Of a DNA stretch of 54,803 nucleotides, positions 30,301-54,803 are shown piece by piece (positions within the stretch are counted from its first letter, which is position 1; the number at the start of each line of letters is the position of its first letter). Position numbers and translations under genes: made by a program. The DNA lies in the NCBI GenBank assembly GCA_003220335.1, contig QHSB01000085.1, positions 1 through 54,803 on the forward strand, written 5' to 3'. The notes under the pieces are model-generated. The model did no database searches. It was not told the origin of the DNA and saw only the letters and a list, made by a program, of their open reading frames with translations. Origin of the DNA: Candidatus Rokuibacteriota bacterium. Lineage in GTDB: Bacteria > Methylomirabilota > Methylomirabilia > Rokubacteriales > CSP1-6.

Positions 30301-31068
30301 TCAGACGCCGACCGCGGAGAGATGCTCACGGTCGAACGCCGTTTTGATCCGACGTCGGAGGTCGTTCTCTGCGTCGAGACGGCGGGCGGCATCCACCCGG
30401 ACGGCGAGCCGAAGCACCGCGTCACCCCCGCTGAATCTCATAATACCCTCCACCGCCGGCGCGTCCAGCGCAGCCCCGGTCTCGCGCGCCCATTCCTCGC
30501 CGACCCGGCGCAACACCGCCAGCGCGCGATCGACGTCGACGTCGCGCGGCACGGCGACCTCCACGATGGCGCGCCCCCAGCCCACGCTGAAGTTCGTGAA
30601 CTCCGCCAGGGCGCCGTTGGGCACGATCCGGAGCGAGCCGTCCTGCAGTCGCAGCTTCACCACCCGCAGGCCGATGGACTCCACGGTGCCGGTCGCCGCG
30701 CCGACCTGGATCACGTCGCCCACGGCCACCAGGCCCTCGAAGAGCAGGAAGATGCCGGTGAGGAGGTCGCGGATGAGCGCCTGGGCGCCGAGCCCGATGA
30801 CGAGGCCGAGCACGCCCGCGGAGACGACGACCGCCTGCACGTCCACGCCCACCTCGCCCAGAACGAGCACCAGCACGACGAACGCCAGCACCCAGCGCAC
30901 GACGCTCGTGAGCAGCGAGCCGAGCGTGCGCGAGCGCGCGGTGTCGAGATGGTGGGCGGCCACGCGCTGCACGAGGCGGTTGATCAGCCGCAGCACGATC
31001 TGGTAGCCGATCAGCAGCAGCGCGATCGTGAGCCCGAGCCAGAGCACGTGCGTGACCGCGGGGTTCAC
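30301..31068 (-). CDS. Mechanosensitive ion channel (MscS) family protein
   Basis: Trimmed to GTG 31068 (GTGA overlap). Three N-terminal TM helices, then GDVIQVGAATGTVESIGLRVVKLRLQDGSLRIVPNG, the MscS beta-domain pattern. Confidence 0.8.
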   Translation of the reverse strand: MNPAVTHVLWLGLTIALLLIGYQIVLRLINRLVQRVAAHHLDTARSRTLGSLLTSVVRWVLAFVVLVLVLGEVGVDVQAVVVSAGVLGLVIGLGAQALIRDLLTGIFLLFEGLVAVGDVIQVGAATGTVESIGLRVVKLRLQDGSLRIVPNGALAEFTNFSVGWGRAIVEVAVPRDVDVDRALAVLRRVGEEWARETGAALDAPAVEGIMRFSGGDAVLRLAVRVDAARRLDAENDLRRRIKTAFDREHLSAVGV

Positions 31069-32213
31069 CGGCCCCGCCCCCGCGCCACGCCCTCGAGCAC
31101 CGCGATGATCGCCAGCACGCAGCCGGCCTGGATGAGGACGATCACGGCCTCGTGCTTGGTCGCGTCCTTGAGCAGCATGGCCGACAGGCCGAGCGTGGCC
31201 GCGATGAAGAGGATCAGCAGCACCGTCTCCGTCCGCGTCAGGCCGAGGGCCTCGAAGCGGTGATGGATGTGGTCCTTGCCCGTGTAGGCGAGCCACTCGC
31301 CGAACGAGTGCACCTTGCCGGTGGCGACGCGCACCGTCCCGACGAACGCGATGTCGAAGAGCGGCACCGCGAGGATCAGCACCGGCGTGAGCAGGCCGAT
31401 GAAGTCGTTTTCCGCCCAGTTGCCCATGACGGCGAGGCCGGCCAGCGTGAAGCCGATGAAGGAGGCGCCGGCGTCGCCGAGGAAGATCGTGGCCGGACGC
31501 CCGAAGCGGAAGTTGTAGGGCAGGAACCCGAGGCACGCGCCCACCAGCGGCGCGGCGAGGAACATCAGGTAGGGCTGGTTGGTCTGCAGCGCGGCGAGGC
31601 TGAAGAAGAGCGCGGCGACGGCGCCCAGGCCCGCGGCCAGGCCGTCCATGCCGTCGAGGAACTGCAGCGCGTTGGTGACCGTCACGAACCAGAGCAGCGT
31701 GAGCAAGACGTTCGCCGCCTGCGAGCCCGGCCAGGCGGCGGGTACCGTGTCGAGCACGACGCCGTACGCCATCGCCACCGCCACCGCCACGATCTGGCCC
31801 GCGAGCTTGAAGCGCGCCGCCACGTCGAAGAGGTCGTCGAGCACGCCGACGCCGACAATGATCGTGGCCCCCAGGGCCACGCCCTTGAGCTGCACCGAGA
31901 AGTTGAAGTTGAACAGCACGGCCGCGGCGAAGGCGGCGTACACGGCGGCGCCGCCGAGCAGCGGCGTGGCCACCGCGTGCACCTTGCGCGCGGCCGGCGT
32001 GTCGAGCACGCCCCACGCGCGCGCGAACGCGCGCACCAGCGGCACCCCGACGAGGGAGAGCGCGAAGGCGAGCGCGACGAGATAGGCCCACCCCAGGCCG
32101 GACGACGCGATGGCGCGGCGCACGGGCGGCAGCATGAGCGCGATGAGGACGACGCCGCGGGCGAGCGTGGCCCCGAGCGCCGCCGGCGTGCTGTCAGGGA
32201 GCGTTTCCGTCAC
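31065..32213 (-). CDS. MraY/WecA-family (GT4 polyprenyl-phosphate HexNAc-1-phosphate) initiating transferase
   Basis: Trimmed to GTG 32213 (an alternative is the internal Met of MLPPVRR). Multi-TM, with VLDDLFDV, NALQFLDGMDGLAAG and IFLGDAGASFIGF. Confidence 0.8.
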   Translation of the reverse strand: MTETLPDSTPAALGATLARGVVLIALMLPPVRRAIASSGLGWAYLVALAFALSLVGVPLVRAFARAWGVLDTPAARKVHAVATPLLGGAAVYAAFAAAVLFNFNFSVQLKGVALGATIIVGVGVLDDLFDVAARFKLAGQIVAVAVAMAYGVVLDTVPAAWPGSQAANVLLTLLWFVTVTNALQFLDGMDGLAAGLGAVAALFFSLAALQTNQPYLMFLAAPLVGACLGFLPYNFRFGRPATIFLGDAGASFIGFTLAGLAVMGNWAENDFIGLLTPVLILAVPLFDIAFVGTVRVATGKVHSFGEWLAYTGKDHIHHRFEALGLTRTETVLLILFIAATLGLSAMLLKDATKHEAVIVLIQAGCVLAIIAVLEGVARGRGR

Positions 32214-32221
32214 GGGCCGGC

Positions 32222-33259
32222 TCAGGTGAGCACCGTCCTGAGCGCCCGCGCGACGTGCTCGGCCTCGTCGTCGGTGAGCGCCGGATAGCACGGGATCGAC
32301 AGCGATTCCGCCCACAGCCGGTCCGCCTCGGGATACCCGCCAAGCCCGAGCGCGCGGTGGGCGGGACGGAACACCGGCCGCCGCGCGGCCACGCCGCGCG
32401 CGGCGAGGGCCTCGGCGACGGCGGCGGGATCGCGATCGAGCCCGAGCACGAAGCGGTGGTAGACGTGACGCGGTCCGTGCTCGGCGGGCAGCCGGGCCGG
32501 CGCGCCCGCGAGAAGGGCGCGGTAGCGCGCCGCGAGCGCACGGCGGCGCGCGACGAATGTGTCGAGCCGCGCGAGCTGGCCGCGCGCCAGCGCGGCGGCC
32601 ATGTCGGTGAGCTTGGCGTTGGTGCGCGGCGCCAGCGTCTCGCGCTCGTCGTAGTCGCGCGCCTCGCGCACGCGCGCGACGAGCGCGGCGACGCCCGCCA
32701 CCGCCCCGCCCTCGCCCGCCGCGATCATCTTCGTGGCGTAGAACGAGCCGACGGCGAGCGTCCCGCCCGAGCCCGCAGGCCGGCCGCCCTCGAGCTCGGC
32801 GCCCAGCGCCTGGGCGCAGTCCTCGATCACCGGCACCTCCAGCGCCTGGAAGGGCTCGAGGTCGGCGGCGAGACCGAAGGCGTGCGGGACGATCACGGCG
32901 CGCGTGCGTCGCGTGCGCCGGGCGAGCGCGTCCTTGGCCGACAGCGAGTGGGTCGCGGGATCGGCGTCCACGAGCACGGGCGTGGCCCCGGCACGGCGCA
33001 CCGCGTGGTGGAGCGCGTCGCACACGTAGGTCGGGATCAGCACCTCGTCGCCGGCGCCGATCCCCAGCGCGCCCAGCGCCAGCTCGAGGGCGACCGTGCC
33101 GGACGCCACCGCGACGGCGTCCTGCACGCCGAGGCGCGCGGCGAGCTCGCGCTCGAACGCGGCCACCTCCGGCCCCTGGGCGAGCCGGCCCGAGCGCACG
33201 ACCCGCGCGACGCGCTCGGCGTCGTCGTCGGTGACCGATGGTTTCGAGTGGGGGATCAA
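32222..33259 (-). CDS. DegT/DnrJ/EryC1/StrS-family sugar aminotransferase
   Basis: Trimmed to TTG 33259 (LIPHSKPSV..., the usual family N-terminus; TTGA overlap with the PIG-L stop). SFYATKMIAAGEGG PLP-lysine region. Confidence 0.8.
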   Translation of the reverse strand: MIPHSKPSVTDDDAERVARVVRSGRLAQGPEVAAFERELAARLGVQDAVAVASGTVALELALGALGIGAGDEVLIPTYVCDALHHAVRRAGATPVLVDADPATHSLSAKDALARRTRRTRAVIVPHAFGLAADLEPFQALEVPVIEDCAQALGAELEGGRPAGSGGTLAVGSFYATKMIAAGEGGAVAGVAALVARVREARDYDERETLAPRTNAKLTDMAAALARGQLARLDTFVARRRALAARYRALLAGAPARLPAEHGPRHVYHRFVLGLDRDPAAVAEALAARGVAARRPVFRPAHRALGLGGYPEADRLWAESLSIPCYPALTDDEAEHVARALRTVLT

Positions 33260-33870
33260 AGGTTCAGCAGCAGCCGAATGCTCTGGAAGGCCTCGGCGTA
33301 CTTCACGCGCGCCTGAATTCCACGAAAGTTCGCGGTCGAGACGGCCAGCTCGAGGATCGACAGGTCCTCGATGTTGGTCTTGGCCACCTGCGAACGGTGC
33401 GCCTCCAGGCACGCGAGCTTCTTGTCCAGCACCTTCTCGATGTCGGTGAAGCAGTTCGGCGTGAAGTTGACGGTGGTCGGCCCCTCGTAGAACAGGAAGT
33501 TCGGGACGTAGCGCGTCGCGGACAGCGTGCCCTGTGCGAGGTTGCGGTGGTCCTGGTGTGTGTCCTCCGGAAAGTTGACGAAGATCATGCGCGGCTCGAT
33601 CTGGCGGATCACGGCCTCGAGGCGGACGATCAGCTCACGGTTGAGCGGGATCTCGGTGTCCTGGTAGTCCCCCCAGAACACTTCACGGGCGCCGATGACC
33701 AGGGCGGAGTCCTGCTGCTCGCGGCGGCGCACGGAGCCATCGCCGCCCAGCGCGCCGTCGGAGGCCACGAACAGGTAGACGACGTGGCCCTTCTCCGCGT
33801 ACTTGGTGAGCATCCCGCCGCAGCCGAACTCGATGTCGTCGGGGTGGGCGCCGATGGCGAGGACGTTCAC
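33256..33870 (-). CDS. PIG-L/LmbE-family N-acetyl-sugar deacetylase
   Basis: 204 aa. VLAIGAHPDDIEFGCGG and HQDH metal-site motifs. Visibly lower GC than its neighbours. Confidence 0.8.
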   Translation of the reverse strand: MNVLAIGAHPDDIEFGCGGMLTKYAEKGHVVYLFVASDGALGGDGSVRRREQQDSALVIGAREVFWGDYQDTEIPLNRELIVRLEAVIRQIEPRMIFVNFPEDTHQDHRNLAQGTLSATRYVPNFLFYEGPTTVNFTPNCFTDIEKVLDKKLACLEAHRSQVAKTNIEDLSILELAVSTANFRGIQARVKYAEAFQSIRLLLNL

Positions 33871-34572
33871 TCAGGGCTCCTCGGTCCAGGCGTCGCCGCG
33901 GCGGAGGATGGCAAGGCTCTCATCGCCGTGCATCAATAATAGATCGAGGCCCGACAAAAACGGCACGAAATCGCCGTGTTGCTGAGCATAGACGGGGTGC
34001 GCGTAGGCCTGGTAGAGCACCCGGATCCCCGCCTCCGTGAAGCGCTTGGCGTCCATATATCTGGCGCCGTGGCCGCCGGCCAGGTACGTGTCGGCGCCCA
34101 CGGCGAGGCAGAGCGCGACCAGCCGCCCGGTCGGGTCGTCGTCGTCCACCGCCAGTGAGGACGCCGGCCGCGACGGGGTCGTCACGCCCGCCGCGCGCGC
34201 GAGCCACTCGGCGCTGGCGGCGGTGAGCGGCGCCAGCCGCTCCCAGGGCCGGGCGTAGAGACGCGCGAGCTCGTCACGCTGCGCTCGCCAGTACGGCGCC
34301 GCGCCGTACGCGGTCTCGATCGCGCGCAGGTGGCGCTTCGCCCAGGGCTGGTCGACGTCGAGGCTCACCTCGGCGACGCGGGTGCCCAGGTGCGCGTGGA
34401 CGGGCACGGTGAGCCAGCGCGCCCCGTCGGCCGTCTTGATGCGGTTGCGGTTCTGCCAGCCGTTCTTCTCGTACTGCACGGTGTCCAGGAACACGAAGAG
34501 GTCGGCCGCCGCCCACTTGGCGAGATAACCCAGCCACGGCAGGTATTGAGGCTGGTGGATCGCGACCCTCAC
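33871..34572 (-). CDS. WbqC-family protein (biochemical function unknown)
   Basis: Trimmed to GTG 34572 (GTGA overlap). VRVAIHQPQYLPWLGYLAKW...FVFLDTVQYEKNGWQNRNRIK matches the WbqC-like N-terminal pattern. Confidence 0.75.
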   Translation of the reverse strand: MRVAIHQPQYLPWLGYLAKWAAADLFVFLDTVQYEKNGWQNRNRIKTADGARWLTVPVHAHLGTRVAEVSLDVDQPWAKRHLRAIETAYGAAPYWRAQRDELARLYARPWERLAPLTAASAEWLARAAGVTTPSRPASSLAVDDDDPTGRLVALCLAVGADTYLAGGHGARYMDAKRFTEAGIRVLYQAYAHPVYAQQHGDFVPFLSGLDLLLMHGDESLAILRRGDAWTEEP

Positions 34573-36056
34573 TGCGCCCTCACGAAGATCGGGTTGGAGA
34601 GCAGGCGCGCGCCGCCGCCGCGCGCCTCGAGACGAAAGACGACGGGCCGCCCGTCCCACGCCTCACGGTGCGTCGCGCGGAACGGCGTGGAGCCGTTCCA
34701 GGCCGCGATCACCGAGCCATTGCGGACGAGCGTCACGCGCACGTCGGCGGCCCGCGGCTCGACGGTCTCGACGGCCGCCGTCACCTCGAGCGCCGCGCCG
34801 GGCGCGGCCCGCAGCGTCTCGCCGGAGATCGCGGTGGCGCCGCCGGCGGCGGCGACGAATTCCGCCAGCGCCAGGCCGGTGTCGCGCCCGCGCTGCAGCG
34901 CGTACATCCGCCCGGCGCGCAGCGCCTCCAGCACGCCCGCCTCGGTCCGCTCGCGGACGAGGAAGACCGTCTGAATCGGCCCCACGCTCTTGCCCGCGCT
35001 GTGCTCGTGGAAGGCCGCCTCGGCCAGCGCCCACGGCACCCGCGTGCGCTCACCGGTCGCGTACTCGCCGAGCACTCGGTCCCAGCCCTCGCCCGGTCGC
35101 TCGACGCGAGTCGTTTCCTCGTACACCGCACCGAACGCCGTGTAGCCGAACGTCTTCAGCAGGTCGTCGGGGTACGGCTCGGTCCCCCAGCTCACCCGCA
35201 CGGGCCCGACGGCCCGCTCCCCGGCGTCGGCGGCCTCCAGGAGCGACCACACGCTGACGCCGCCGCGACGCTCGACGTAATCGATGAGGTCCTGGAATGG
35301 CGCGCTGCCCGCCTCGGTCCAGGGGGGATAGACGGGCTGCGTGAACGGCCACGCCCGCGCGAGCGTGATCACGCCGAGCGCGACGAGGATCAGCCCGGGC
35401 AGCCACGCCCGGCGTCGCACGATCACGACCGCGCGTCCGAGCGGGCGCCGCCGCGTGCGCGGGCGCGCCAGCAGCACCACGCCGGGCACGATGAGGAGGC
35501 CGGGCAGGACGTCGAGCACGGACTGGAGCCCAAAGACTCCCGCGGAGGTGTTGCCGACGACGGGCAGGCCCTCGAGCGCCGCGCGGTCGAGCCCCCAGAC
35601 GAGCAGGTTTTTCTGCGTCCCGTGCACCGCCATCGCCAGCGAGAACGGCGAGCCAGTCCAGAAATAGTGGGGCATGACCTCCACGCCGGGCAGGATCAGC
35701 ACGCGCGGACGCGCGGCGCGCGCCTGCGCCACGCGCGCGAAGTACTCGCCGAGGCGGCCGTGGACGGAGCGCGATTCCTCGCTCACGCGCGTCAGGGCGC
35801 GGAACGGCGGCAGGCTGTACTCCACGCGGTTGAGATAGTTCTCCGACAGCAGCACCGCACCGAGCCCACGGCGCTCGGCCATGTCGGTCAGCTCCTCGAG
35901 CGGGAACTCGCCGCTCGAGAGGTCGGAGTGCACGTGGACGATCGCGGCCAGCCGCTCGTACGACTGCGCGGCGTGCGCCGCCCCGGCGCCGAGCGTCACC
36001 GCCAGCCACGCGGCCAGCAGCGCGACCCGGCACGCGGCGCGCGCGGGAGGCCTCAC
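34569..36056 (-). CDS. Membrane-associated protein with N-terminal PHP-like metal-dependent phosphoesterase motif
   Basis: Trimmed to GTG 36056 (GTGA overlap). Signal/anchor sequence RVALLAAWLAVTLGAGAAHA, then AIVHVHSDLSSGEFPLEELTDMAERRGLGAVLLSENY (PHP-like HxH...D). A central pair of hydrophobic helices (LPGLLIVPGVVLLA, LPGLILVALGVITLA) follows. The C-terminal domain is unrecognised. The CDS is solid; the function call is weak. Confidence 0.5.
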   Translation of the reverse strand: MRPPARAACRVALLAAWLAVTLGAGAAHAAQSYERLAAIVHVHSDLSSGEFPLEELTDMAERRGLGAVLLSENYLNRVEYSLPPFRALTRVSEESRSVHGRLGEYFARVAQARAARPRVLILPGVEVMPHYFWTGSPFSLAMAVHGTQKNLLVWGLDRAALEGLPVVGNTSAGVFGLQSVLDVLPGLLIVPGVVLLARPRTRRRPLGRAVVIVRRRAWLPGLILVALGVITLARAWPFTQPVYPPWTEAGSAPFQDLIDYVERRGGVSVWSLLEAADAGERAVGPVRVSWGTEPYPDDLLKTFGYTAFGAVYEETTRVERPGEGWDRVLGEYATGERTRVPWALAEAAFHEHSAGKSVGPIQTVFLVRERTEAGVLEALRAGRMYALQRGRDTGLALAEFVAAAGGATAISGETLRAAPGAALEVTAAVETVEPRAADVRVTLVRNGSVIAAWNGSTPFRATHREAWDGRPVVFRLEARGGGARLLSNPIFVRAQ

Positions 36057-37441
36057 GCCAGCCCCTTCTCGCGCGCCAGCTCGTCGTAGATCGCGCGCAT
36101 CGCGGCGTGGGCGACGCCGGTCGAGAACGCCTCGGCGCGCGCCGCGCCGGCGGCGCCGAGCTTCACGCGCAGCGCCTCGTCGCGCCCCAGCTCGATCAGC
36201 GCCGACGCCAGCGCGTCGACCTCGCCAGGCGGCACGAGCCATCCCGTCTCGCCGTCGGCAACGACCGCGGGGATGCCGCCGACCTCGCTTGCCACCACGG
36301 GCAGGCCGAGCGCCATCGCCTCCACGAGCGCCCGGCCCATGCCCTCGTTGCGCGAGGGCGCCGCCAGCGCGTCGGCGGCGGCGAGGCCGACGGCGATGTC
36401 CGGCATGGCGCCGGTAACGAGCAGGCGTCCGCGCACGCCGAGGGTCACCGCCTGGGCCTCCAGCGCCCTGCGCTCGGGCCCGTCGCCGACCAGCACGAGG
36501 CGGGCCGACGGCACCGCCGCGACCAGCGACGGCAGCGCCGCCACCAGCAGGTCGAAGCCCTTGACCGGCACGAAGCGCCCGAGACCGGCCACGACAAACG
36601 CGTCGGCGGGCAAGCCAAGCCGGGCGCGGGCGGTGGCGCGCGCCGGCGCCCGCGCGCGTAACTCGGCCGTCGGCACGCCGCTCGGCACCGCGCGGTACTG
36701 GGCGCGATGCCCGATGCCGCGCGCGAGGTGCTCGTCGATCCCGCGCTCGGTGAGGGTCACGATGCGATCGGTCCAGCGCGCGGCGAGACGCTCGAGCGCC
36801 ACGTAGAAGGCCGTGCGGCGGGCGCCGTAGTAGCCGTAGAAGATGTGGCCGTGCGGCTGGTGGATGATGGCCGGCACCCCGGCCAGCCGCGCCGCCAGCC
36901 GCCCGACGAAGCCCGCCTTGGACGTGTGGGTGTGGACGATCGCCGGCCGCCGCGCGCGTATCACGCGCCAGAGGTGGACGAGCGCGGACACGTCGCGCGC
37001 CCCGACCTCGCGGCCGAGCGTGGGCACGTCGAGCAGCGACACGCCGCGGCGGCGGGCGTCATCGTAGCCGTAGAAGATGTGGCCGTGCGGCTGGTGGATG
37101 ATGGCCGGCACCCCGGCCAGCCGCGCCGCCAGCCGCCCGACGAAGCCCGCCTTGGACGTGTGGGTGTGGACGATCGCCGGCCGCCGCGCGCGTATCACGC
37201 GCCAGAGGTGGACGAGCGCGGACACGTCGCGCGCCCCGACCTCGCGGCCGAGCGTGGGGACGTCGAGCAGCGACACGCCGCGGCGGCGCGCGTCATCCAC
37301 GCTGGCGGCGTCGGACTCGGCCACGCCCACGGCGAGCCAGCCCGGGTAGCCGGCGGCGAGCGCCACCATGCTCGCGACGGTGTTCTCCGCCGACCCCCCG
37401 AGGGTCAGCCGCGTGATGACGTGGAGGGTGGGATGTCTCAT
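36053..37441 (-). CDS. GT4-family (GT-B) glycosyltransferase carrying an internal 78-aa tandem duplication
   Basis: Trimmed to ATG 37441 (MRHPTLHVITRLTLGGSAEN, ATGA overlap). C-terminal E-x7-E region PSRNEGMGRALVEAMALGLPVVAS. The segment DDARRRGVS...HGHIFYGY occurs twice in tandem. Confidence 0.8.
   Translation of the reverse strand: MRHPTLHVITRLTLGGSAENTVASMVALAAGYPGWLAVGVAESDAASVDDARRRGVSLLDVPTLGREVGARDVSALVHLWRVIRARRPAIVHTHTSKAGFVGRLAARLAGVPAIIHQPHGHIFYGYDDARRRGVSLLDVPTLGREVGARDVSALVHLWRVIRARRPAIVHTHTSKAGFVGRLAARLAGVPAIIHQPHGHIFYGYYGARRTAFYVALERLAARWTDRIVTLTERGIDEHLARGIGHRAQYRAVPSGVPTAELRARAPARATARARLGLPADAFVVAGLGRFVPVKGFDLLVAALPSLVAAVPSARLVLVGDGPERRALEAQAVTLGVRGRLLVTGAMPDIAVGLAAADALAAPSRNEGMGRALVEAMALGLPVVASEVGGIPAVVADGETGWLVPPGEVDALASALIELGRDEALRVKLGAAGAARAEAFSTGVAHAAMRAIYDELAREKGLA
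36830..37297. repeat. 234-bp x 2 tandem direct repeat inside the GT4 gene
   Basis: 36830-37063 and 37064-37297 align base for base with two mismatches (37025 c vs 37259 g; 37055 g vs 37289 c). The plus-strand shadow ORFs 36843 and 37077 are identical for 74 aa and offset by 234 nt. The repeat is in frame (78 codons). Confidence 0.95.
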
Positions 37442-45914: not shown

Positions 45915-45921
45915 TCTTACT

Positions 45922-46054
45922 GGGGGCCCCGACATGGCCCCCAGACCCCCAGCGCTCGGACGCGCCCCGGCGGAGCCGGGGCGCGCCTCGGGGTTGGCCC
46001 CCAGACCCCCAGCGCTCGGACGCGCCCCGGCGGAGCCGGGGCGCGCCTCGGGGT
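45922..46054 (+). repeat. Bipartite GC-palindromic element, copy C, with perfect 60-bp tandem duplication
   Basis: Core gggggccccgacatggccccc (45922-45942). Hairpin module cgcgccccgg-cggag-ccggggcgcg at 45961-45985 and again at 46021-46045. 45935-45994 and 45995-46054 are identical. Confidence 0.9.
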
Positions 46055-46069
46055 CGCCCACAGGATGTG

Positions 46070-47200: not shown

Positions 47201-48368
47201 GGCGTGCCTCCGCCGCCCGCGCGAGCACACGCTCGTAGCCGTCGGCCACGCGGTCCCAGGCGTAGAGCGCGGCCGCGCGGCGACGCCCGGCCTCGCCCAG
47301 CTGCCGGCGTCGCGCCGGGTCGTGGGCCAGCGCAGCGATCGCGTCGCCGAGCGCCGCCGCATCGCCCGGCGGCACCAGCACGCCGGCGTCGCCGACGACC
47401 TCGGGCAGCGCGGTCGAGCGCACCGTGACGACGGCGCGGCCGTAGCTCATGGCCTGGGCGACGACGAGCCCGAACGTCTCGTACGTCGAATGGAACGCGA
47501 AGAGATCGCAGGCCTCGAAGTAGCCACCGAGCCCGGTGCGCGGAAGGTAACCCGCGAAGCGCACGTGCTTGTCGATGCCCAGCTCCGCGGCCAGCGCGCG
47601 CAGCGCCGGCGCCTCGGGCCCGGTGCCGCCGATCACCAGGGTGACGGCAACGCCGCCGTCGAGGCAGCGCCGCAGCGCGCGCAGCAGCGTGTCGACGCGC
47701 TTCTCAGGGGCCAGGCGCTGCAGCGCGAACACCAGACAGTCCCCCGGCGGCACCTCGAGCGCGGCCCGGACCGCGGCGCCGTCGCCGGGCGGCGGCGGGA
47801 TCTCGACACCGTTGGCGATCACCTCGCCCCGCCCGCGGCCGCGGCCGTAGATCGCGTCGCGGCAGTAGCCGGAGACGTAGGTGGCGTCGGTGGCCAGCGC
47901 GATGAGCGCGCGCTGCCACCAGCGCCAGAGCGCGGGCACACCGGGGCCGGGCACGTCGCGGCCGTTCATCGTGAGCACGGTCGGCACGCCGAGCCGGCGC
48001 TCGGCCACGACGCCGGCGAGTCCGGTGGGCATCGCGTAGTGCACGTTCAGCACGTCGGGACGCGCCGCGGCGACCGCGCGGCGCACGGCCGCCACCGCCG
48101 ACAGCGAGAAGGGCGGCAGGGCGCCGGCCGTCCAGCGATGACCGCGCACGCGCATCAGCGTCACACGGTCCTCGTAGTGCTCGACGGGGAACGTCACCAG
48201 CGCGTCGTACTCCGACGAGCCCTGCTCGCGGTGCAGCGACGCGGGCAGCACCGGCGTCAGCAGCCGGACGGCGTGGCGGAGGGCCAGGCGGCGGTAGACC
48301 TCCAGCACCACCAGCTCCGCGCCGCCGACGACGGGCAGGAACGTGGGCGTGAGGACGAGGATCTTCAC
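47190..48368 (-). CDS. GT4-family glycosyltransferase
   Basis: 392 aa. (V/M)KILVLTPTFLPVVGGAELVV and HSTYETFGLVVAQAMSYGRAVVTV. GTG start overlaps the upstream stop (GTGA). Confidence 0.85.
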   Translation of the reverse strand: MKILVLTPTFLPVVGGAELVVLEVYRRLALRHAVRLLTPVLPASLHREQGSSEYDALVTFPVEHYEDRVTLMRVRGHRWTAGALPPFSLSAVAAVRRAVAAARPDVLNVHYAMPTGLAGVVAERRLGVPTVLTMNGRDVPGPGVPALWRWWQRALIALATDATYVSGYCRDAIYGRGRGRGEVIANGVEIPPPPGDGAAVRAALEVPPGDCLVFALQRLAPEKRVDTLLRALRRCLDGGVAVTLVIGGTGPEAPALRALAAELGIDKHVRFAGYLPRTGLGGYFEACDLFAFHSTYETFGLVVAQAMSYGRAVVTVRSTALPEVVGDAGVLVPPGDAAALGDAIAALAHDPARRRQLGEAGRRRAAALYAWDRVADGYERVLARAAEARRAG

Positions 48369-49456
48369 ACGAGCACCCGGCGGTAGACCGCGCGCGTCTC
48401 TTCCGCGATGGCCGGCCAGGCGACGCGCGCGGCGAGCTTGCGCGCGCCCTCGGCGAGCCGCGTCCGCGCGGCCGGTGCGGCGAGCAACGCGGCCAGCCGC
48501 GCGGCCAGGGCCGCCGCGTCGCGCGGGGGCACGAGCGCGATGTTGTCGCCGTCGCGCAGATACGGCGACGGCACCGCGGCCGACGTGGTGACGACAGGCA
48601 GGCCGTGGGCGAGCCCCGCCATGAGGCTGCTGCGACGGAGCGACGCGCCGCCGTCGAACGGCGCCACGAACACGTCGGCGGCGCCGAGGATCCGCGAGAC
48701 ATCCGCGGCCGGCCGGCGGCCCGTCCAGGTCACGGCGCGCGCGACCCCGAGGCGGACGGCGAGCGCCTCGAGATCACCGCGATACGCGCGCTCGGACTCG
48801 CGGGTGTCCCCGACCACGACCAGGCGAGCGTCGGGCTGCGCGGACTTCAAGATGGCCAGGGCCTCGAGCAGCGTCTCCAGCCCCTTGCCCGGGTACACGA
48901 GGCCGAAGTGCGCGAGCAGCGGCGCGCGCGGTTGCACGCCGAGCGCCGCGCGCGTGACGCGCCGATCGCCGGCCGGCGTCGTCGCGATGTTGGAGCCGAT
49001 GGGGATCTCCGTCATCCGCCGCGCCAGCCACGGCAGCCGGCGCCGCACCATCCCGCTGACCTCCTCGTTGGCGGCGACGACGTGGCGGGCGCTCGTGAGC
49101 AGCCAGAGCGCCGCCGCCCCCGAGGCGAGCGTCGCGTCGACCAGGGTGTGGAACGTCACGACGGCCGGCGTGGCGAAGGTCGCGCGCAGCGCGCGGCGCC
49201 GACCGCGATAGAGGTCGGGCGTGTACTGGAGGTTCACGACGTCGGCGGCGACCACCCGCCACCATGGCGCCGGCTCGTCGAGGATCGGCAACACACTCAC
49301 GCCGCCGTCCGCGGGGCCGCGCCACGCCGCGGAGGCGACGACCGTCACCTGCTCGCCCTGGCGCGCCAGCTCCTCCGCGAGACAGCGCGTGTAGTCACCG
49401 ACTCCACACGTCACGTCCTGGGGCGGATACGACGGGCAGGCGATCAGGATGCGCAC
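48365..49456 (-). CDS. GT4-family glycosyltransferase
   Basis: Trimmed to GTG 49456 (VRILIACPSYPPQDVTCGVGDY, 13-nt overlap). C-terminal GT-B half ...VVVGDTRESE...LAHGLPVVTT. Confidence 0.8.
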   Translation of the reverse strand: MRILIACPSYPPQDVTCGVGDYTRCLAEELARQGEQVTVVASAAWRGPADGGVSVLPILDEPAPWWRVVAADVVNLQYTPDLYRGRRRALRATFATPAVVTFHTLVDATLASGAAALWLLTSARHVVAANEEVSGMVRRRLPWLARRMTEIPIGSNIATTPAGDRRVTRAALGVQPRAPLLAHFGLVYPGKGLETLLEALAILKSAQPDARLVVVGDTRESERAYRGDLEALAVRLGVARAVTWTGRRPAADVSRILGAADVFVAPFDGGASLRRSSLMAGLAHGLPVVTTSAAVPSPYLRDGDNIALVPPRDAAALAARLAALLAAPAARTRLAEGARKLAARVAWPAIAEETRAVYRRVLV

Positions 49457-50904
49457 GCCGCCACCTCCACCGCGCGCGGCCGCCATACCCGCGCGATGAG
49501 CCGGCTGATGCCGAGCAGCATCAGCGCGTTGAGGAGGAAGAACAGCACCTGGTGCAGCGTGAGCGTCAGCCCCTCGGGCGTGGGCAGCCGCGCCAGCAGA
49601 TCGCGCGCGCTCACCTCCGGCCGGGCCACCACCGTGTGCAGCGTCTCGAGGCCCGTCCAGGCGGGCAGCGCTTCCTTGAACAGCACGCCCATCCCCGTCC
49701 CCGACACGAACGTCTTGAGCGCGTACGGCAGCGCGTTCGGCACCGGCGCGAAGCCCGCCTGGGCGCCGAGATAGCCGCAGACGAGCGACGGCACGACCAA
49801 CGCCAGCAGCGCGCGGCGGCCGAGCTGCTCGAGCACGGCGCCCGTGAACGCGGCCAGCAGCGGCAGCGCGGGGAACAGGTAGCGCGCCCCGAGGCCGTGC
49901 GACCACGACGCACGGTCGGCAAACTGTGACTGCCACGAGGCGCCGATGACGACGAGGGCGACCAGGAACGTCGCCGTCAGCGCCGCCTCCGCGCGCCGCG
50001 CGCCGCGTGCCGCCGCCACGAGCGCAGGCAAGGCGGCCAGCAGAAACGGCGCGTAGAGGAAGAGCCCGCCGCGCGGGCCGACGAGGAGGTCGGCGACGAT
50101 GGCCGGCTTGGGCATGACGAACCGCGTGTCGAGCCCGGTGATGGCGGAATAGGACGTGTGCCAGGGGGCACCGAAGAGCCACGTGTCATAGGTGCCGAGC
50201 ACGAGCGCCAGGGGCGCGCCGCCCAGCGCGAACGCCGCCGCCTCGCGCGGGCCGCCGCGGACGAGGACGATGAGCCCCAGCAGCAACGGCAGCGGCACGA
50301 CCGAGTGCGTGAGGAGCACCGCGGCGGCGGCCACCGTGCCCGCCGCCGCCCGGCGCCGCGCGCCGCCGCCGCCCAGCGCCAACCGCGCCGCCGTGGTGAT
50401 GGCAAGCGCGGTGAGGCTCTCCTTCGTGAGCATCGTGCCGAACTGAAACGCCTGCGTGCCGAGGGCGAACAGCAGCGCCGCCAGCACACGCCCGCGCCGC
50501 GACGCGCCGAGCCAGCCCGCGAGCCAGGCCACCTGCACCGCCGTCAGCGCCATGGCCGGCGCGCAGAGAAGAAGGATGACCACGGCGTTGACGGTCTCGA
50601 GCCCCGTCCAGCCCTCGACGCGCGCGCCACCCGCGAGGCGCCAGGCGGCGTAGGCCGGCGCGATCACCAACGACATGCCGAACGGCACGCCGGGCACGAT
50701 GCGGCCGTCGCGTGCCGTCGCGTTGTCCTTGCCCCCGTACAGCCGCCAGTGCACGAGCTCCCAGCGGCCCGTGTCCACCAGCGAGACGGCGCCGTCCACG
50801 AAGTTGTCGGTGTTGGAGAACTGCAGCCACGGGTTCCAGAACGCGACGTAGACGAGCAGCGCGGTGACGAAGATCCGCCCGGCGTCGGCGCGGATGGCGC
50901 TCAC
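49444..50904 (-). CDS. Large polytopic membrane protein, unclassified (possible GT-C-type transferase or polymerase)
   Basis: Trimmed to GTG 50904 (GTGA overlap). About 486 aa with many hydrophobic helices. The first predicted loop is acidic (FSNTDNFVDGAVSLVDTGRWE). I recognise no specific family. Confidence 0.5.
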   Translation of the reverse strand: MSAIRADAGRIFVTALLVYVAFWNPWLQFSNTDNFVDGAVSLVDTGRWELVHWRLYGGKDNATARDGRIVPGVPFGMSLVIAPAYAAWRLAGGARVEGWTGLETVNAVVILLLCAPAMALTAVQVAWLAGWLGASRRGRVLAALLFALGTQAFQFGTMLTKESLTALAITTAARLALGGGGARRRAAAGTVAAAAVLLTHSVVPLPLLLGLIVLVRGGPREAAAFALGGAPLALVLGTYDTWLFGAPWHTSYSAITGLDTRFVMPKPAIVADLLVGPRGGLFLYAPFLLAALPALVAAARGARRAEAALTATFLVALVVIGASWQSQFADRASWSHGLGARYLFPALPLLAAFTGAVLEQLGRRALLALVVPSLVCGYLGAQAGFAPVPNALPYALKTFVSGTGMGVLFKEALPAWTGLETLHTVVARPEVSARDLLARLPTPEGLTLTLHQVLFFLLNALMLLGISRLIARVWRPRAVEVAACAS

Positions 50905-52166
50905 GTCGCCTCCGCCGGCCGCCGCGGCAGCAGCGTCAGCGTCAGCGCGGTCAGGATCGCCAGACCGTAGGTCTTGATGCCGGCCAGCAACACGGGGACA
51001 CCTATGGCGAGGCCGGGATGCTGGTAGTAGTCGTCGATGGCGCCGATCAGCACGATGGCGAGCGCCAGCCACGCGGCGCGCACGATCGAGCCGTCGCGCA
51101 GCGTCGCGTCGACGAGGACGGCGAGCGGCAGCAGCGCGAAGACGAGGTGATTGATCGTGGTGTTCGGCGTGATGAGCAGCAGCACGAGCGCGATGAATGA
51201 GAGCTCCGGCACGAGGCGCGCCGGCGCGATCGGGCCCGGCGGTCGCAGGGCGACGATGGCCGCGGCCAGGGCCGCGACCGAGGCGACCACGCCGACCGTG
51301 CGCCAGGCACCGAGTGGCACCGACGGCGAGAGCCCGTGGCCCGTGGCGACGATCCAGCCGGTGAGCGAGAGGTTGCCGAGCTGGCCGGACACGCGGCCGT
51401 AGCCGTACTGCGGCGCCACCTGCGTGACGTACTCCACCGTCGCCGCCCAGCCGACCGCCGCGGTCGCCAGCGCCGTGCACGCCACGGCGGTGAGGCAGGC
51501 GGCGGCGAAGGCCCGCCACTTGCCCCGCCACGCGAGCCAGCCGATGAAGAGCGCGGGATGAAACCGCAGCGCCGTCGCCACACCGAGGGCGGCGCCGCCG
51601 AGCACGGCGCGGCCGGAGGCGAGCGACCAGACGAACAGCGCGAGCAGCGCCAGCACGAGCTGGTTGATCTGGCCGAGGCCGAGCGAGTTCTCGAGCGGTT
51701 CCCACGTGAGGAACAACGCGGCCGTCGTCAGGGTCGCCGCCGCGCCGAGGCGGGCCGCGCGCGTGATCCAGAGGAACGCGGCGACCAGCAACACGACGCT
51801 GAGGGCCAGCCACACCTCGACCGCGTGACGCCACGAGAGCGCCGTGAACGGCACGAAGGGCAGCACGGCCAATGGCGGGTAGGAGAAGGCGTGGATGTGC
51901 ACGAAGCCCTCGTGGGCGTGCAGCGTGCCGAGGCGGGCCGCCTCCGCCACGAGCGCGGCGCTCTCGTTGACGCCCTTGGCGTGGTCCATCCCCGGGTCAT
52001 AGAACGAGGTCCCGGCGCGATAGAGGTGCGCGCCCGTGTAGAGGATGGCGAAGTCGCGCGCATCACCGTGGCGCGCCGTCTGCAGCGTGCGCACGGCGAC
52101 GCGGCCGGCCAGCCCGGCGACGACGAGCGCGAGCGCCACGACGGCGACGGGCAGGCGGCCGTTCAT
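50901..52166 (-). CDS. GT87/DUF2029-like polytopic membrane glycosyltransferase
   Basis: 421 aa, about 10 or more TM helices. First-loop motif GDARDFAILYTGAHLYRAGTSFYDP is typical of the PimE/DUF2029 family. ATG overlaps the upstream stop (ATGA). Confidence 0.7.
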   Translation of the reverse strand: MNGRLPVAVVALALVVAGLAGRVAVRTLQTARHGDARDFAILYTGAHLYRAGTSFYDPGMDHAKGVNESAALVAEAARLGTLHAHEGFVHIHAFSYPPLAVLPFVPFTALSWRHAVEVWLALSVVLLVAAFLWITRAARLGAAATLTTAALFLTWEPLENSLGLGQINQLVLALLALFVWSLASGRAVLGGAALGVATALRFHPALFIGWLAWRGKWRAFAAACLTAVACTALATAAVGWAATVEYVTQVAPQYGYGRVSGQLGNLSLTGWIVATGHGLSPSVPLGAWRTVGVVASVAALAAAIVALRPPGPIAPARLVPELSFIALVLLLITPNTTINHLVFALLPLAVLVDATLRDGSIVRAAWLALAIVLIGAIDDYYQHPGLAIGVPVLLAGIKTYGLAILTALTLTLLPRRPAEAT

Positions 52167-53284
52167 TGGGCCCGCGCGCGCGCGTAGACCTCGAGCGTGC
52201 GCCGCGCCGTGACGTCGATCGACTGCGTCGCCGCATAGGCGCGCGCCGCCGCCGCGAGCCGCGCGCGCGCCGCCGCGTCGTCGAGGAGCGCGGCGAGCGT
52301 CTTCGCCAGGTCGTGCGGGTCGTCGGGCTGCACCAGCGCGATGCCGTGACCGCGCTCCTCCAGCTCGCGCAGCGGGGCGACCGCGGTGGCGACGACAGGC
52401 CGTCCCTGGGCGAGGGCCACGTGCAGCGAGTAGGAGACGCTGTCCTCGGTCGCGTAGGGCACGACCACGACGTCCATCGCCTCGAGCGCCACCGCCACTT
52501 CGGCCGGTGGCACGTAGCCGGTCACCACGAGACGATCGGCGAGGCCGGCGCGGGCGGCGTCGGCGCGCACCCCGGCGAGCACCGCCTCGTGCTCGGGCAG
52601 GCGCGGCCCGCCCGCCACCAGCAACGTCGGCGCGTCGCCGCGTCCCAGCGCCTCCAAGGCCTCGAGGACCAGCGCGAAGCGCTTGGAGCGCTCGACGAAG
52701 CCGAAGACGCCCACCACGGGTCGCCGGCCCAGCCCGTGGCGCGCGCGGAACGCGTTCACGGCCGCGGCCTCGACCGGCACGCGGCGCGGGACCGGCGGCG
52801 GGACGACGACGCAGCGGTCGGCCGCCACCCCGCGCGCGAGCAACCGGTCACGATGCAGGCCCGCGTGCACGATCACCGCCTCCGCGCGGCGGAACGTCTC
52901 GACATCGTGCCAGGCGGGGGCGCCGACGGCGTTGGCGAGGGCGCTGCCCAGGCCGCCCGCGTAGCGCGCAGGGCCGTCCGGACGCACGGTGTGCGCGGTC
53001 ACGACCAGCGGCGCACGGATCGCGGCCCTCAACACTCGCCACGCCAGCGTGTAGGTCAGCGCGTCCACCCCGAAGAACGAGTAGGTGTGCTGCACGTGGG
53101 CGACGTCGGCTCTGCCCAGGCGGCGCGCATCGGCGGCCAGCGCGAGCGGATTCAGACGGTTCGGCCGGAGGACGACGGTCTCGAGCTCGATGTGGTGGCG
53201 CAGCGCGACGCTCAGCGCGGCGCTGTAATCGGCGATGCCGCAGCGCTCGCGCACCGTCGTGTACATCGCGACGCGGAGGCTCAT
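52163..53284 (-). CDS. GT4-family glycosyltransferase
   Basis: 373 aa. MSLRVAMYTTVRERCGIADYS and VPYATEDSVSYSLHVALAQGRPVVAT. Confidence 0.8.
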   Translation of the reverse strand: MSLRVAMYTTVRERCGIADYSAALSVALRHHIELETVVLRPNRLNPLALAADARRLGRADVAHVQHTYSFFGVDALTYTLAWRVLRAAIRAPLVVTAHTVRPDGPARYAGGLGSALANAVGAPAWHDVETFRRAEAVIVHAGLHRDRLLARGVAADRCVVVPPPVPRRVPVEAAAVNAFRARHGLGRRPVVGVFGFVERSKRFALVLEALEALGRGDAPTLLVAGGPRLPEHEAVLAGVRADAARAGLADRLVVTGYVPPAEVAVALEAMDVVVVPYATEDSVSYSLHVALAQGRPVVATAVAPLRELEERGHGIALVQPDDPHDLAKTLAALLDDAAARARLAAAARAYAATQSIDVTARRTLEVYARARAQ

Positions 53285-53294
53285 CGATTGTCGT

Positions 53295-53416
53295 GGGGGG
53301 CCCCGACATGGCCCCCAACGCCCCCCAACGGATTCATCGCAGGCTCGCCTCGGCCGTCGAACGGCCTGCGGCTTCGCACTCCCACGCGCCCCGGCAGAGC
53401 CGTGGCGCGCCTCGGG
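53295..53416 (+). repeat. Bipartite GC-palindromic element, copy D (longer linker)
   Basis: Core ggggggccccgacatggccccc (53295-53316). Hairpin module cgcgccccggcagagccgtggcgcgcctcggg (53385-53416). Compare copy C cgcgccccggcggagccggggcgcgcctcgggg. The roughly 68-nt linker contains another small hairpin ggccgtcgaacggcc. Confidence 0.75.
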
Positions 53417-53432
53417 CTTGACACGCGATGGC

Positions 53433-54560
53433 TCATCGAATCAGCCCCTTGCGCTCGAGCTCGTCGCGGGCCTGCGCGACGTGGTCGTCGGCCCGCTGCT
53501 GCCGCGCCCACGTCACGAGGTCCTCGACGCCCTTGGCGAGCCCCATGCGCGCGCTGAAGCCGAGCGCGCGGCGGATGCGCGAGACGTCGGCCACGCAGTG
53601 GCGGATGTCGCCTTCGCGGAACCGGCCGACGATCTCCGGCGCCAGCGCCACGCCCATCGACCGCGCGATCGCCTCCGCGAGCGCGGCCACCGAGGTCGAG
53701 CGCCCGGTGCCCACGTTGAGCGCCACGTCGACGACGTCCGGGCGCTCCAGCGCCAGGCAGAAGGCCTCGACGATGTCGCTCACGTGGACGAAGTCGCGGC
53801 TCTGGCGGCCGTCCTCGAACACGAGCGGCCGCTGGCCGTTGAGCAGGCGCGACGAGAAGATCGCGCCGACGCCGGTGTACGGGTTGGAGAGCGCCTGGCG
53901 GGGGCCGTACACGTTGAAGAGCCGGAGGGCGACGGTGCCGATGCCGTACGCGCGGCCGACGCAGAGGCAGAGATCCTCCTGGTCGCGCTTGGTCACCGCG
54001 TACACCGACGTCGGCGCGATCGGCTTGTCCTCGTCGCACGGCGCCGGCGTGGTGGTGGTCCCGCACGCCGGGCAGAGCAGCTCCCAGTCGCGCGCCTGCA
54101 GCTGCGCGAGCGGGCGCGGCGCCGGCGCCACGGGGCCGCACGACGGGCAGCGGTACCGGCCCTCGCCGTAGATCGACATCGACGACGCGACGACGAGGCG
54201 CCGAACGTGATGGCCACCGTTGGCGAGGCGGTCGAGCAGGACCGCGGTGCCGCGCACGTTGTCGTCGACGTAGGGCACGATCGCGTACATGGACTGCCCC
54301 ACCCCGACCTGCGCCGCGAGGTGGACGACGGAGCCCACGCCCGCCAGCGCGCGGTCGACGGCCGCGGCGTCGCAGACGGAAGCGTGCACCAGCTCCACGC
54401 CGGCCGGCAGGTGGCGCGCGCGGGTGGCGCCGACGCCGTGCACCTGGGGCTCGAGCGAGTCGAGCACGCGCACGCCGGCGCCGCGCGCGAGGAGCGCCTC
54501 CACGAGGTGGGAGCCGATGAAGCCCGCGCCGCCGGTGACGAGAACGGGGGAGGCGATCAT
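53433..54560 (-). CDS. NAD-dependent sugar epimerase/dehydratase (extended SDR) with Cys4 insertion
   Basis: Trimmed to ATG 54560 (MIASPVLVTGGAGFIGSHLV, ATGA overlap). Catalytic YAVTK, and the insertion YRCPSCG...LLCPACG between the SS-x-YG strand and YxxxK. Confidence 0.85.
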   Translation of the reverse strand: MIASPVLVTGGAGFIGSHLVEALLARGAGVRVLDSLEPQVHGVGATRARHLPAGVELVHASVCDAAAVDRALAGVGSVVHLAAQVGVGQSMYAIVPYVDDNVRGTAVLLDRLANGGHHVRRLVVASSMSIYGEGRYRCPSCGPVAPAPRPLAQLQARDWELLCPACGTTTTPAPCDEDKPIAPTSVYAVTKRDQEDLCLCVGRAYGIGTVALRLFNVYGPRQALSNPYTGVGAIFSSRLLNGQRPLVFEDGRQSRDFVHVSDIVEAFCLALERPDVVDVALNVGTGRSTSVAALAEAIARSMGVALAPEIVGRFREGDIRHCVADVSRIRRALGFSARMGLAKGVEDLVTWARQQRADDHVAQARDELERKGLIR

Positions 54561-54803
54561 GGCGCGGTGAACCTCCGGACGACGGCGGCGTGGTCGTGGC
54601 GCGCGCCGTCGCGGACGCGGCGGCGGGCGGCCAGCGTGTCGGGCAGCCGGCGCGCGTTGTGGGCGAAGGCCAGGACGATCGAGAGCGCGAGCTTGAGGTT
54701 GCGGCGGCTCACGTGCCACGCGATGCGCGCCACGAGCGCCGCGATCAGCCGTGCGGCATCGCGCGCCGGCAGCACCTTGAGGCCGAAGCGAAGAAGATTG
54801 GTG
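54557..54803 (-). CDS. C-terminal end of an upstream CDS that starts beyond the right edge (possibly a GT2-type glycosyltransferase tail)
   Basis: The minus-strand frame is open from the window edge (…TNLLRFGLKVLPARDAARLIAALVARIAWHVSRRNLKLAL…) to the stop at 54557-54559, which overlaps the epimerase ATG (ATGA). The helical, Arg-rich tail resembles the C-termini of WbbL-like GT2 enzymes. This is a weak call. Confidence 0.4.
   Translation of the reverse strand, partial: TNLLRFGLKVLPARDAARLIAALVARIAWHVSRRNLKLALSIVLAFAHNARRLPDTLAARRRVRDGARHDHAAVVRRFTAP

Follow-up and report, generated by a model that had tools for sequence, protein, structure and literature searches.

A probable Wzx/Wzy-dependent heteropolysaccharide locus with three GT-C membrane glycosyltransferases in an uncultured Candidatus Rokuibacteriota bacterium

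Glycosyltransferases of the GT87 family have, to our knowledge, been characterised so far in Actinobacteria only. The three-component systems GtrA/GtrB/Gtr*, ArnC/ArnT, and C. youngae ORF12-15/GT136 are reportedly treated in Mann & Whitfield 2016. Periplasmic systems of this kind, in which a DPM1-like synthase works together with a flippase and a GT-C membrane glycosyltransferase, are described as widespread in Gram-negatives, and modify both Wzy-dependent and ATP-binding cassette (ABC)-dependent glycans (PMC11127046). GT87 domains and a DPM1-like synthase domain reside together in the glycan locus analyzed here, found in contig QHSB01000085.1 of an uncultured soil bacterium, Candidatus Rokuibacteriota (Methylomirabilota). 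The window, that is the whole stretch of DNA analyzed, is 54,803 nucleotides long, and the locus runs through it on the minus strand from 54803 down to 31065. As far as we know, the host phylum is diderm and has no cultured members. The locus probably directs the synthesis of a heteropolysaccharide that is initiated by a WecA-family enzyme, made by the Wzx/Wzy pathway, exported by Wza/Wzc, and branched in the periplasm by GT-C enzymes.

The original prediction, made from the window alone, had described a glycoconjugate locus with no Wzx/Wzy/Wzz set or ABC exporter in view, different in kind from O-antigen and capsule loci. The absence was confirmed inside the window, where Pfam and NCBIfam scans and hydropathy revealed no Wzx, Wzy, Wzz, Wza or ABC genes. 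It does not extend to the locus, of which the window holds the distal ~24 kb: export genes are missing because the window ends too early, and the upstream start of the locus is not at 54803. A Wzx/Wzy set past that position, named beforehand as evidence against a separate kind of locus, is what was found. The extension contigs L061 and L062 were retrieved by a metagenome scan with the methyltransferase encoded just past the window end, a database search with the short-chain dehydrogenase/reductase (SDR) protein of the locus alone having returned short contigs only. L061 matches the last 1,061 nucleotides of the window (53743-54803) at 99.62% nucleotide identity, and extends 10,021 nucleotides beyond; L062 matches 48002-54803 at 98.1-99.1% identity, and extends 7,379 nucleotides beyond.

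Upstream of the window genes, L061 encodes, in transcription order, a partial Wza-like fragment with an SLBB domain (L061:1-423), an AAA_22 ATPase (L061:427-1233, 268 aa), an HD-domain (HD_5) protein (L061:1242-2336, 364 aa), a Wzc-like protein with Wzz, GNVR, AAA_31 and SPOR domains (L061:2347-5610, 1,087 aa), a Wzy_C protein (L061:5614-7068, 484 aa, PF04932), a Wzx flippase (L061:7065-8468, 467 aa, PF01943, PF13440 and PF03023), a methyltransferase (L061:8479-9282, 267 aa) and a family 2 glycosyltransferase (GT2; L061:9270-10268, 332 aa, PF00535). The latter is cut by the window end, its C-terminal 81 of 332 aa (54557..54803, minus strand) being 99% identical to the ends of L061:9270-10268 and L062:6628-7626. 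Both contigs encode GT2, methyltransferase, Wzx, Wzy_C and Wzc-like proteins, and only L061 reaches the HD, AAA_22 and SLBB/Wza-like genes. In window-equivalent coordinates Wzx lies at ~56357-57760, about 1.55 kb beyond 54803, and Wzx, Wzy_C and Wzc together span 1.5-7.7 kb past the window end, bringing the full locus to at least 33.8 kb. The same gene order was found in nine further, more distant Rokubacteria contigs (L003, L004, L006, L009, L010, L011, L012, L017 and L023; 50-93% protein identity), which, with L061 and L062, tells against the supposed difference in kind. L028 has full Poly_export plus SLBB genes, and L004 a Poly_export gene. Of the Wzx/Wzy pathway, an initiating transferase is encoded in the window, and a MOP-family Wzx and Wzc/Wza in L061. 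The initiating enzyme, encoded by the last gene of the locus (31065..32213, minus strand), is a WecA/MraY-family polyprenyl-phosphate N-acetylhexosamine (HexNAc)-1-phosphate transferase (PF00953, E 4e-30) with ~11 transmembrane (TM) segments; its best NCBIfam match is TIGR02380 WecA (125 bits, below cut-off).

These results bear directly on the kinship with actinobacterial phosphatidylinositol mannoside, lipomannan and lipoarabinomannan (PIM/LM/LAM) assembly that had been suggested. A PIM/LM/LAM-like glycolipid or lipoglycan, built mainly extracytoplasmically by GT-C enzymes and independent of Wzx/Wzy or ABC transporters, is extremely unlikely. It is contradicted by the Wzx, Wzy_C and Wzc genes on two near-identical contigs and in nine syntenic loci; initiation is of the WecA type, with a diphosphate-linked intermediate; cytoplasmic domains, seven GT4 and three GT2, predominate; and PimE orthology was not found for the GT87 protein at 50901-52166, which scores 31 bits with the PimE equivalog NF009915 against a cut-off of 413. 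What speaks for it is the presence of three GT-C enzymes and a DPM1-like synthase in one locus, and the lack of an exporter inside the window.

The 1,087-aa Wzc-type protein with its kinase-like AAA_31 domain, accompanied by Wza/SLBB and AAA_22 proteins, points to an exopolysaccharide (EPS) or capsule, not to a Wzz-controlled O-antigen. We consider unlikely a lipopolysaccharide O-antigen locus, in which the Wzy_C protein would act as polymerase or as WaaL ligase, and the GT-C enzymes would modify the O-antigen in the manner of seroconversion, or else the core or lipid A: this route needs both Wzy and WaaL, and a single Wzy_C-family gene is present. Yet a WecA-family initiator, Wzx, Wzy_C, WbqC, DegT and PIG-L are typical of O-antigen loci, the LptD gene lies 9 kb downstream, and one of the GT-C proteins, of 486 aa, is structurally closest to ArnT, a lipid A modifier. 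Family PF04932, to which the Wzy_C protein belongs, also covers ligases and O-oligosaccharyltransferases. The protein might accordingly be a PglL-like oligosaccharyltransferase in a protein O-glycosylation system, with PMT/ArnT-like GT-C enzymes glycosylating secreted (e.g. PEP-CTERM) proteins, and it is true that distant relatives of the 486-aa protein match PMT and PMT_2, and that XrtA/PEP-CTERM models are the best matches for several genes. Wzc and Wza export components argue instead for a free polymer, the XrtA-related matches are all below curated cut-offs, and neither exosortase nor PEP-CTERM genes were found in the 44 kb covered, so that protein glycosylation appears very unlikely. Assignment to the XrtA/PEP-CTERM EPS class was rejected as well. 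Its markers gave the best matches at scores below cut-off (TIGR03108, 558 against 817; stp2, 217 against 409; pepcterm_ATPase, 228 against 324), and because of these scores, and of the missing exosortase, the locus is not filed in that class.

The Wzc-like co-polymerase is unusually long (1,049-1,087 aa; L061:2347-5610, L028:5347-8496), and carries a C-terminal, peptidoglycan-binding SPOR domain after the AAA_31 kinase-like domain. The AAA_22 ATPase and the HD_5 protein encoded between the Wza-like and Wzc-like genes (L061:427-2336) hint at regulation of export. The best match of the AAA_22 counterpart in L028 is the XrtA/PEP-CTERM-associated ATPase, below cut-off.

Three large polytopic proteins with acidic first loops are encoded in the locus. 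As originally predicted, they are GT-C proteins, not Wzy or flippases, two on the basis of GT87 Pfam matches, the third on that of a fold model. The GT87-family glycosyltransferase at 50901..52166 (minus strand) has ~11 TM segments, features the loop GDARDFAILY, and matches PF09594 with 107.6 bits (cut-off 25); a phmmer search of PDB sequences with this protein gave no match, and none to PimE at E<=1. In the second protein (43797..45914, minus strand), a generic GT2 domain (PF00535, 75.6 bits) is fused to a GT87 GT-C membrane domain (PF09594, 79 bits, cut-off 25) featuring the loop motif DSGFIDFAHYYAYA. Since homologues of the fusion are ~707 aa long, the start at 45914 is favoured over that at 46073. 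The GT2::GT87 arrangement is conserved down to 46% identity. Its GT2 domain was considered as a Ppm1-like synthase, and rejected as such, being a generic GT2 (MftF-, EpsD- and WbbL-like) paralogous to the upstream 332-aa GT2; a role in lengthening the lipid-linked oligosaccharide on the cytoplasmic side is more likely. In L004, a relative at 51% identity, the GT87 gene is replaced by one for a 530-aa protein without Pfam match (L004:8337-9929), and an additional PMT_2 GT-C gene (604 aa, L004:17102-18916) follows the GT2::GT87 gene. The GT-C complement varies therefore between lineages.

The third protein, of 486 aa (49444..50904, minus strand), has no Pfam match, and the profile of its family no match among PDB sequences. 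Its link to GT-C enzymes came only via structure prediction and Foldseek, and via a profile search of 1.84 billion representative proteins. The AlphaFold model (AF2, 44 homologues) has a pLDDT of 92.6 and a pTM of 0.92. The best 14 Foldseek matches in the PDB are all GT-C folds (probability 0.97-1.0, TM-scores 0.28-0.49), with ArnT (5f15, E 2.9e-5) at the top, the others being Pmt4, STT3, ALG3, ALG6, ALG9, ALG12, AftA, DPY19, GPI mannosyltransferase I and GPI transamidase. Pmt entries occupy ranks 15-17, and PimE is found only at rank 43 (E 1.0); Wzy, WaaL and MOP flippases are absent among the matches. The first periplasmic loop includes the invariant residues D37 and D60. The profile search retrieved 2,458 clusters at E<=1e-10, the majority without Pfam domain. 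Sixty distant relatives were sampled, and gave 15 family matches (8 PMT_2, 3 PMT, 3 GT87 and 1 Alg9-like). Foldseek matches led by GT-C enzymes, and relatives of the PMT_2, PMT and GT87 families, place the 486-aa protein in the GT-C superfamily; judged by its model, it is a member of a large GT-C branch having no Pfam or CAZy model. In distant Rokubacteria (L025-L032), orthologues at 43-47% identity adjoin Wzc-Wzy_C. The simpler L028 locus (L028:2052-20127), the one annotated gene by gene, is made up by Wza, AAA_22, HD, Wzc, Wzy_C, GT-C, Wzx, GT2, GT4, GT2, GT2, AsnB and GT4 genes, and the placement of the GT-C gene between Wzy_C and Wzx suggests a core rather than an accessory role.

A candidate polyprenyl-phosphate sugar synthase is encoded at 42538..43800 (minus strand), where a DPM1/ArnC/GtrB-type GT2 domain is fused to an S-adenosylmethionine (SAM)-dependent methyltransferase (PF08241). 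The DPM1/Ppm1-like nature ascribed to this domain from the start agrees with its PDB sequence matches, which include the Pyrococcus dolichyl-phosphate mannose synthase (5mlz, E 1e-21), ArnC (E 1e-16 to 1e-14) and GtrB (E 4e-7). Its best NCBIfam models are AglJ, dolichyl-phosphate hexose transferase, ArnC, PpgS and PgfS, all below cut-off. The domain features the motif MDADLSH, which we take to resemble the DPM1 signature.

The neighbourhood of the 486-aa family is informative on donors. In at least 10 Myxococcota contigs, a distant homologue of the 486-aa protein (30% identity over 326 residues, E 2e-10) is directly followed by a GT2 that matches the DPM1/ArnC-like domain of the window. The GT2 of L044 is a full-length ArnC homologue (E 1e-54), and AsnB comes next after the GT2 in L035 and L044, the two Myxococcota loci annotated with Pfam. 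The GT-C/GT2 pair, with AsnB next in L035 and L044, is a conserved and apparently undescribed gene module of Myxococcota/Polyangia (L035:9374-13914 and L044:9788-14277; also L034, L036-L038, L040, L042, L047 and L060). In the window, the DPM1-like and AsnB genes are separated by one GT4 gene. A GT-C/ArnC-like GT2/AsnB neighbourhood kept across phyla supports the use of a polyprenyl-monophosphate sugar donor by this GT-C family. Myxococcota include cultivable, genetically tractable species, so that the function of the family is experimentally testable there.

A UbiA-family protein encoded elsewhere in the window (16953-17831, minus strand) matches the decaprenyl-phosphate phosphoribosyltransferase model with 277 bits, over a curated cut-off of 234. 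Its gene adjoins those for a nucleotide-sugar dehydrogenase and a second DegT aminotransferase (the two at 17838-19139 and 19136-20236), and that for LptD. Rv3806c-type enzymes make polyprenyl-P-ribose-5-P donors for GT-C pentofuranosyltransferases, and by its family assignment the UbiA enzyme could supply a second lipid-linked donor to the GT-C enzymes, 13-35 kb away. A wider proposal, which we regard as speculative and rather unlikely taken as a whole, is that the three GT-C enzymes, the DPM1-like::methyltransferase and the GT2::GT87 fusion make up a substantial periplasmic elongation stage, in which a backbone made by Wzy receives branches (methylated hexose, uronamide or pentofuranose) from monophosphate-linked donors, the one for pentofuranose possibly coming from the UbiA enzyme. 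The 486-aa protein would then be the founding member of a new and widespread family of GT-C enzymes, and GT-C/ArnC-like/AsnB, a partnership found in Myxococcota too, would be a new module for amidated sugars outside the cytoplasm.

In the Wzx/Wzy-dependent, GT-C-branched scheme favoured here, the WecA-family enzyme would load HexNAc-1-phosphate, possibly as a modified amino sugar, onto undecaprenyl phosphate. SDR, DegT, PIG-L, WbqC and AsnB would tailor nucleotide sugars to amino, de-N-acetylated or re-acylated, and amidated uronic forms, and seven GT4 and two or three GT2 domains, with the methyltransferase domains, would assemble, on the cytoplasmic side of the membrane, a large repeat unit linked to lipid. 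The unit would then be flipped by Wzx, polymerised by Wzy_C, and the product exported by Wzc/Wza. In parallel, the DPM1/ArnC-like GT2 domain would charge undecaprenyl phosphate with a sugar, and from donors linked in this way, by a monophosphate, all three GT-C proteins (the GT87 enzyme, the fusion through its GT87 domain, and the 486-aa protein) would add branch residues in the periplasm. The pairing of each donor with an acceptor is conjectural.

Several observations weigh against this scheme. Window and export genes are joined through near-identical metagenome contigs, and not through the molecule that the window itself comes from, and the homologues are known from sequence alone. Besides the initiating transferase, the locus has about 10 Leloir glycosyltransferase domains (7 GT4, 3 GT2) and 3 GT-C enzymes. 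Up to 13-14 glycosyl-transfer domains are unusually many for one Wzy repeat unit, and far more than the 3-8 sugars of a typical unit require. A very large repeat unit, or the synthesis of two or more products by this locus, may account for this. Matches to XrtA/PEP-CTERM EPS models fall without exception short of their curated thresholds. The candidate synthase at 42538-43800 has no TM segment. Of the parts of a three-component system, the locus has the synthase type and GT-C enzymes with an acidic first loop, and lacks the small flippase: hydropathy over all genes called in the locus, and over most others of the window, revealed no GtrA-like protein, and no small polytopic ORF of the GtrA/SMR/MATE type occurs in the window or L061, the sole flippase-like gene there being Wzx. 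Finally, no convincing DPM1/ArnC-like GT2 is encoded in the neighbourhood of the L028 GT-C orthologue; the donor may be made elsewhere, or the GT-C protein may have another, core role.

The remaining glycosyltransferases of the window part, and the sugar-tailoring enzymes, are all encoded on the minus strand. Pfam and NCBIfam scans recovered item by item the gene and domain list drawn up earlier, and the Cys4 motifs, the internal duplication in one GT4 and the acidic motifs given for the first loops of three proteins were confirmed as well. An NAD-dependent SDR epimerase/dehydratase (53433..54560; PF01370, E 5e-50) matches in two stretches flanking an insert with the Cys4 motif CPSC138...CPAC163, and is GalE- and LegB-like, below curated NCBIfam cut-offs. 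Five GT4 proteins are encoded at 52163..53284 (PF13692 and PF00534; best NCBIfam match stp3, an XrtA-system glycosyltransferase, below cut-off), 48365..49486 (PF13692 and PF00534; start possibly at 49456), 47190..48368 (PF00534, E 4e-32), 46070..47362 (PF13692, E 2e-33; best NCBIfam match stp2 with 141 bits, below cut-off; start uncertain, orthologues being 376 aa long), and 41423..42541 (PF00534, E 6e-36). At 37438..39522, a GT4 (PF00534) is joined by a Cys4 linker (CEAC417...CAAC439) to a SAM methyltransferase (PF13489/PF08241). The GT4 at 36053..37441 (PF00534, E 9e-39; stp2-like, 217 bits against a cut-off of 409) has a duplicated N-terminal segment, the N-terminal domain matching in two stretches. 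The 14-residue sequence DDARRRGVSLLDVP occurs twice in it without change, at residues 49 and 127, and the protein is 462 aa long, orthologues being ~385 aa; repeat and excess length suggest a recent internal duplication or an assembly artefact.

A sugar carboxylate is the probable substrate of the AsnB-family glutamine amidotransferase (39519..41423; PF00733, E 3e-98); its best NCBIfam match is the XrtA/PEP-CTERM amidotransferase TIGR03108 (558 bits, cut-off 817). WbqC (33871..34659; PF08889, E 4e-66) belongs to a family of uncharacterised function typical of O-antigen loci. The PIG-L family de-N-acetylase (33256..33870; PF02585, E 6e-25) is BshB1-like, and the DegT/PseC-type sugar aminotransferase (32222..33259; PF01041, E 3e-73) is PseC/ArnB-like, both below cut-off. 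A further protein, of 495 aa (34569..36056), is predicted to be a membrane-anchored PHP-like metal phosphoesterase. It has no Pfam match, and a CehA/McbA metallohydrolase match in NCBIfam (E 1e-14) is below cut-off. Its AF2 model (pLDDT 79) matches PHP phosphoesterases (3e38, 2anu) in Foldseek, and its C-terminal part, a beta-sandwich, is similar to the carbohydrate-binding domain of Wzt. Given the signal peptide, and a TM hairpin that interrupts the PHP domain and has an arginine-rich loop, both halves of this domain should be periplasmic. Metallophosphoesterases are known which release undecaprenyl phosphate from lipid-linked polymers (PMC11898649), and an analogous role for the 495-aa protein is only an idea.

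The window has a G+C content of 70-77%, and all its genes are on the minus strand. Analysis of GC content at third codon positions by frame revealed an unbroken run of minus-strand genes from 54803 down to 31065; in line with the start/stop coupling noted earlier, most junctions overlap by 4 nt. True intergenic gaps are two (53285-53432 and 45915-46069), and the genes may form one operon. Promoter and terminator scans of 35000-54803 gave results no better than shuffled sequence, and tRNA and Rfam scans of the window zero matches. Past the low-coordinate end of the locus, at 31065, come MscS, GalU, trp genes, accD and folC, indicating that this boundary is real; a matching downstream end, including the MscS-GalU-trp flank, was found in L005. 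GalU, the UTP-glucose-1-phosphate uridylyltransferase (29419..30285, minus strand; TIGR01099, 367 bits against a cut-off of 327), has a conserved position in L005, and is a possible precursor supplier just outside the locus, the MscS gene lying in between. Window positions 1-29348 are occupied by housekeeping genes, including RNase J, M23 peptidase, PolA, GlnE, PII, a Na/Pi-PhoU transporter, histidine phosphatase, GltX, DUF362, FolC, AccD, and trpA/B/F/C plus a phosphoribosyltransferase. LptD is encoded at 20233-22314, in accord with the LptD-encoding host originally described.

Close homologues of the 486-aa and 495-aa proteins are all from soil or groundwater metagenomes, or from metagenome-assembled genomes (MAGs) of Candidatus Rokuibacteriota/Methylomirabilota, and without exception carry the annotation 'hypothetical protein'. 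Among genomes, MAG AR7 (QHRU01000050.1) is nearest, with 81-93% protein identity across the locus. A literature search found no description of this locus or its homologues, and nothing specific on WbqC function, Rokubacteria EPS or GT87/DUF2029 in EPS loci. The locus seemed to have no export machinery; it is a normal Wzx/Wzy/Wzc/Wza system which the end of the window cuts in two, and the main value of the analysis lies in this correction. The periplasmic lipid-linked-donor route, put forward as undescribed for such organisms, has lost its novelty too: three-component systems being widespread in Gram-negatives (PMC11127046), this GT-C logic is not new for diderms. The locus is unusual for having three GT-C enzymes in one EPS locus, GT87 outside Actinobacteria, GT2::GT87 and DPM1-like::methyltransferase fusions, and no dedicated donor flippase found in the window or L061. 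Of interest to glycobiology are GT87 in an EPS locus of a diderm, and the 486-aa protein as representative of a large GT-C family that Pfam and CAZy do not model.

Wzx/Wzy-dependent EPS and group-1 capsule systems (Myxococcus EPS, colanic acid, XrtA EPS) share with the locus an initiating transferase, many GT4 and GT2 enzymes, Wzx, a Wzy_C-family protein, a Wza/SLBB exporter, and a Wzc-like co-polymerase that includes a kinase-like domain; XrtA-type EPS loci share in addition the AAA_22 ATPase and the AsnB amidotransferase. In contrast with these systems, the Rokubacteria locus has a larger glycosyltransferase set (10 Leloir and 3 GT-C), two fused methyltransferase domains, a PHP phosphoesterase predicted to be periplasmic, and a Wzc-like protein that ends in a SPOR domain. 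The actinobacterial PimE/MptA-C and Ppm1 system shares the GT87 domain, found here twice, the acidic first loop, and a DPM1-like synthase nearby. It differs in that PimE orthology is lacking here, the host is an LptD-encoding diderm, and the context is Wzx/Wzy, not a phosphatidylinositol-anchored lipoglycan; we know of no GT2::GT87 fusion described for mycobacteria. With Gram-negative three-component systems the locus shares a DPM1/ArnC/GtrB-type GT2 and a GT-C enzyme within one Wzx/Wzy-dependent glycan locus. Unlike in those systems, a dedicated small flippase is missing in the window and L061, the synthase-like domain, which is soluble, shares a polypeptide with a methyltransferase, the GT-C enzymes are three, not one, and belong to GT87 and an unannotated family, not to Gtr, GT83 or GT136, and one GT87 domain is fused to a cytoplasmic GT2.

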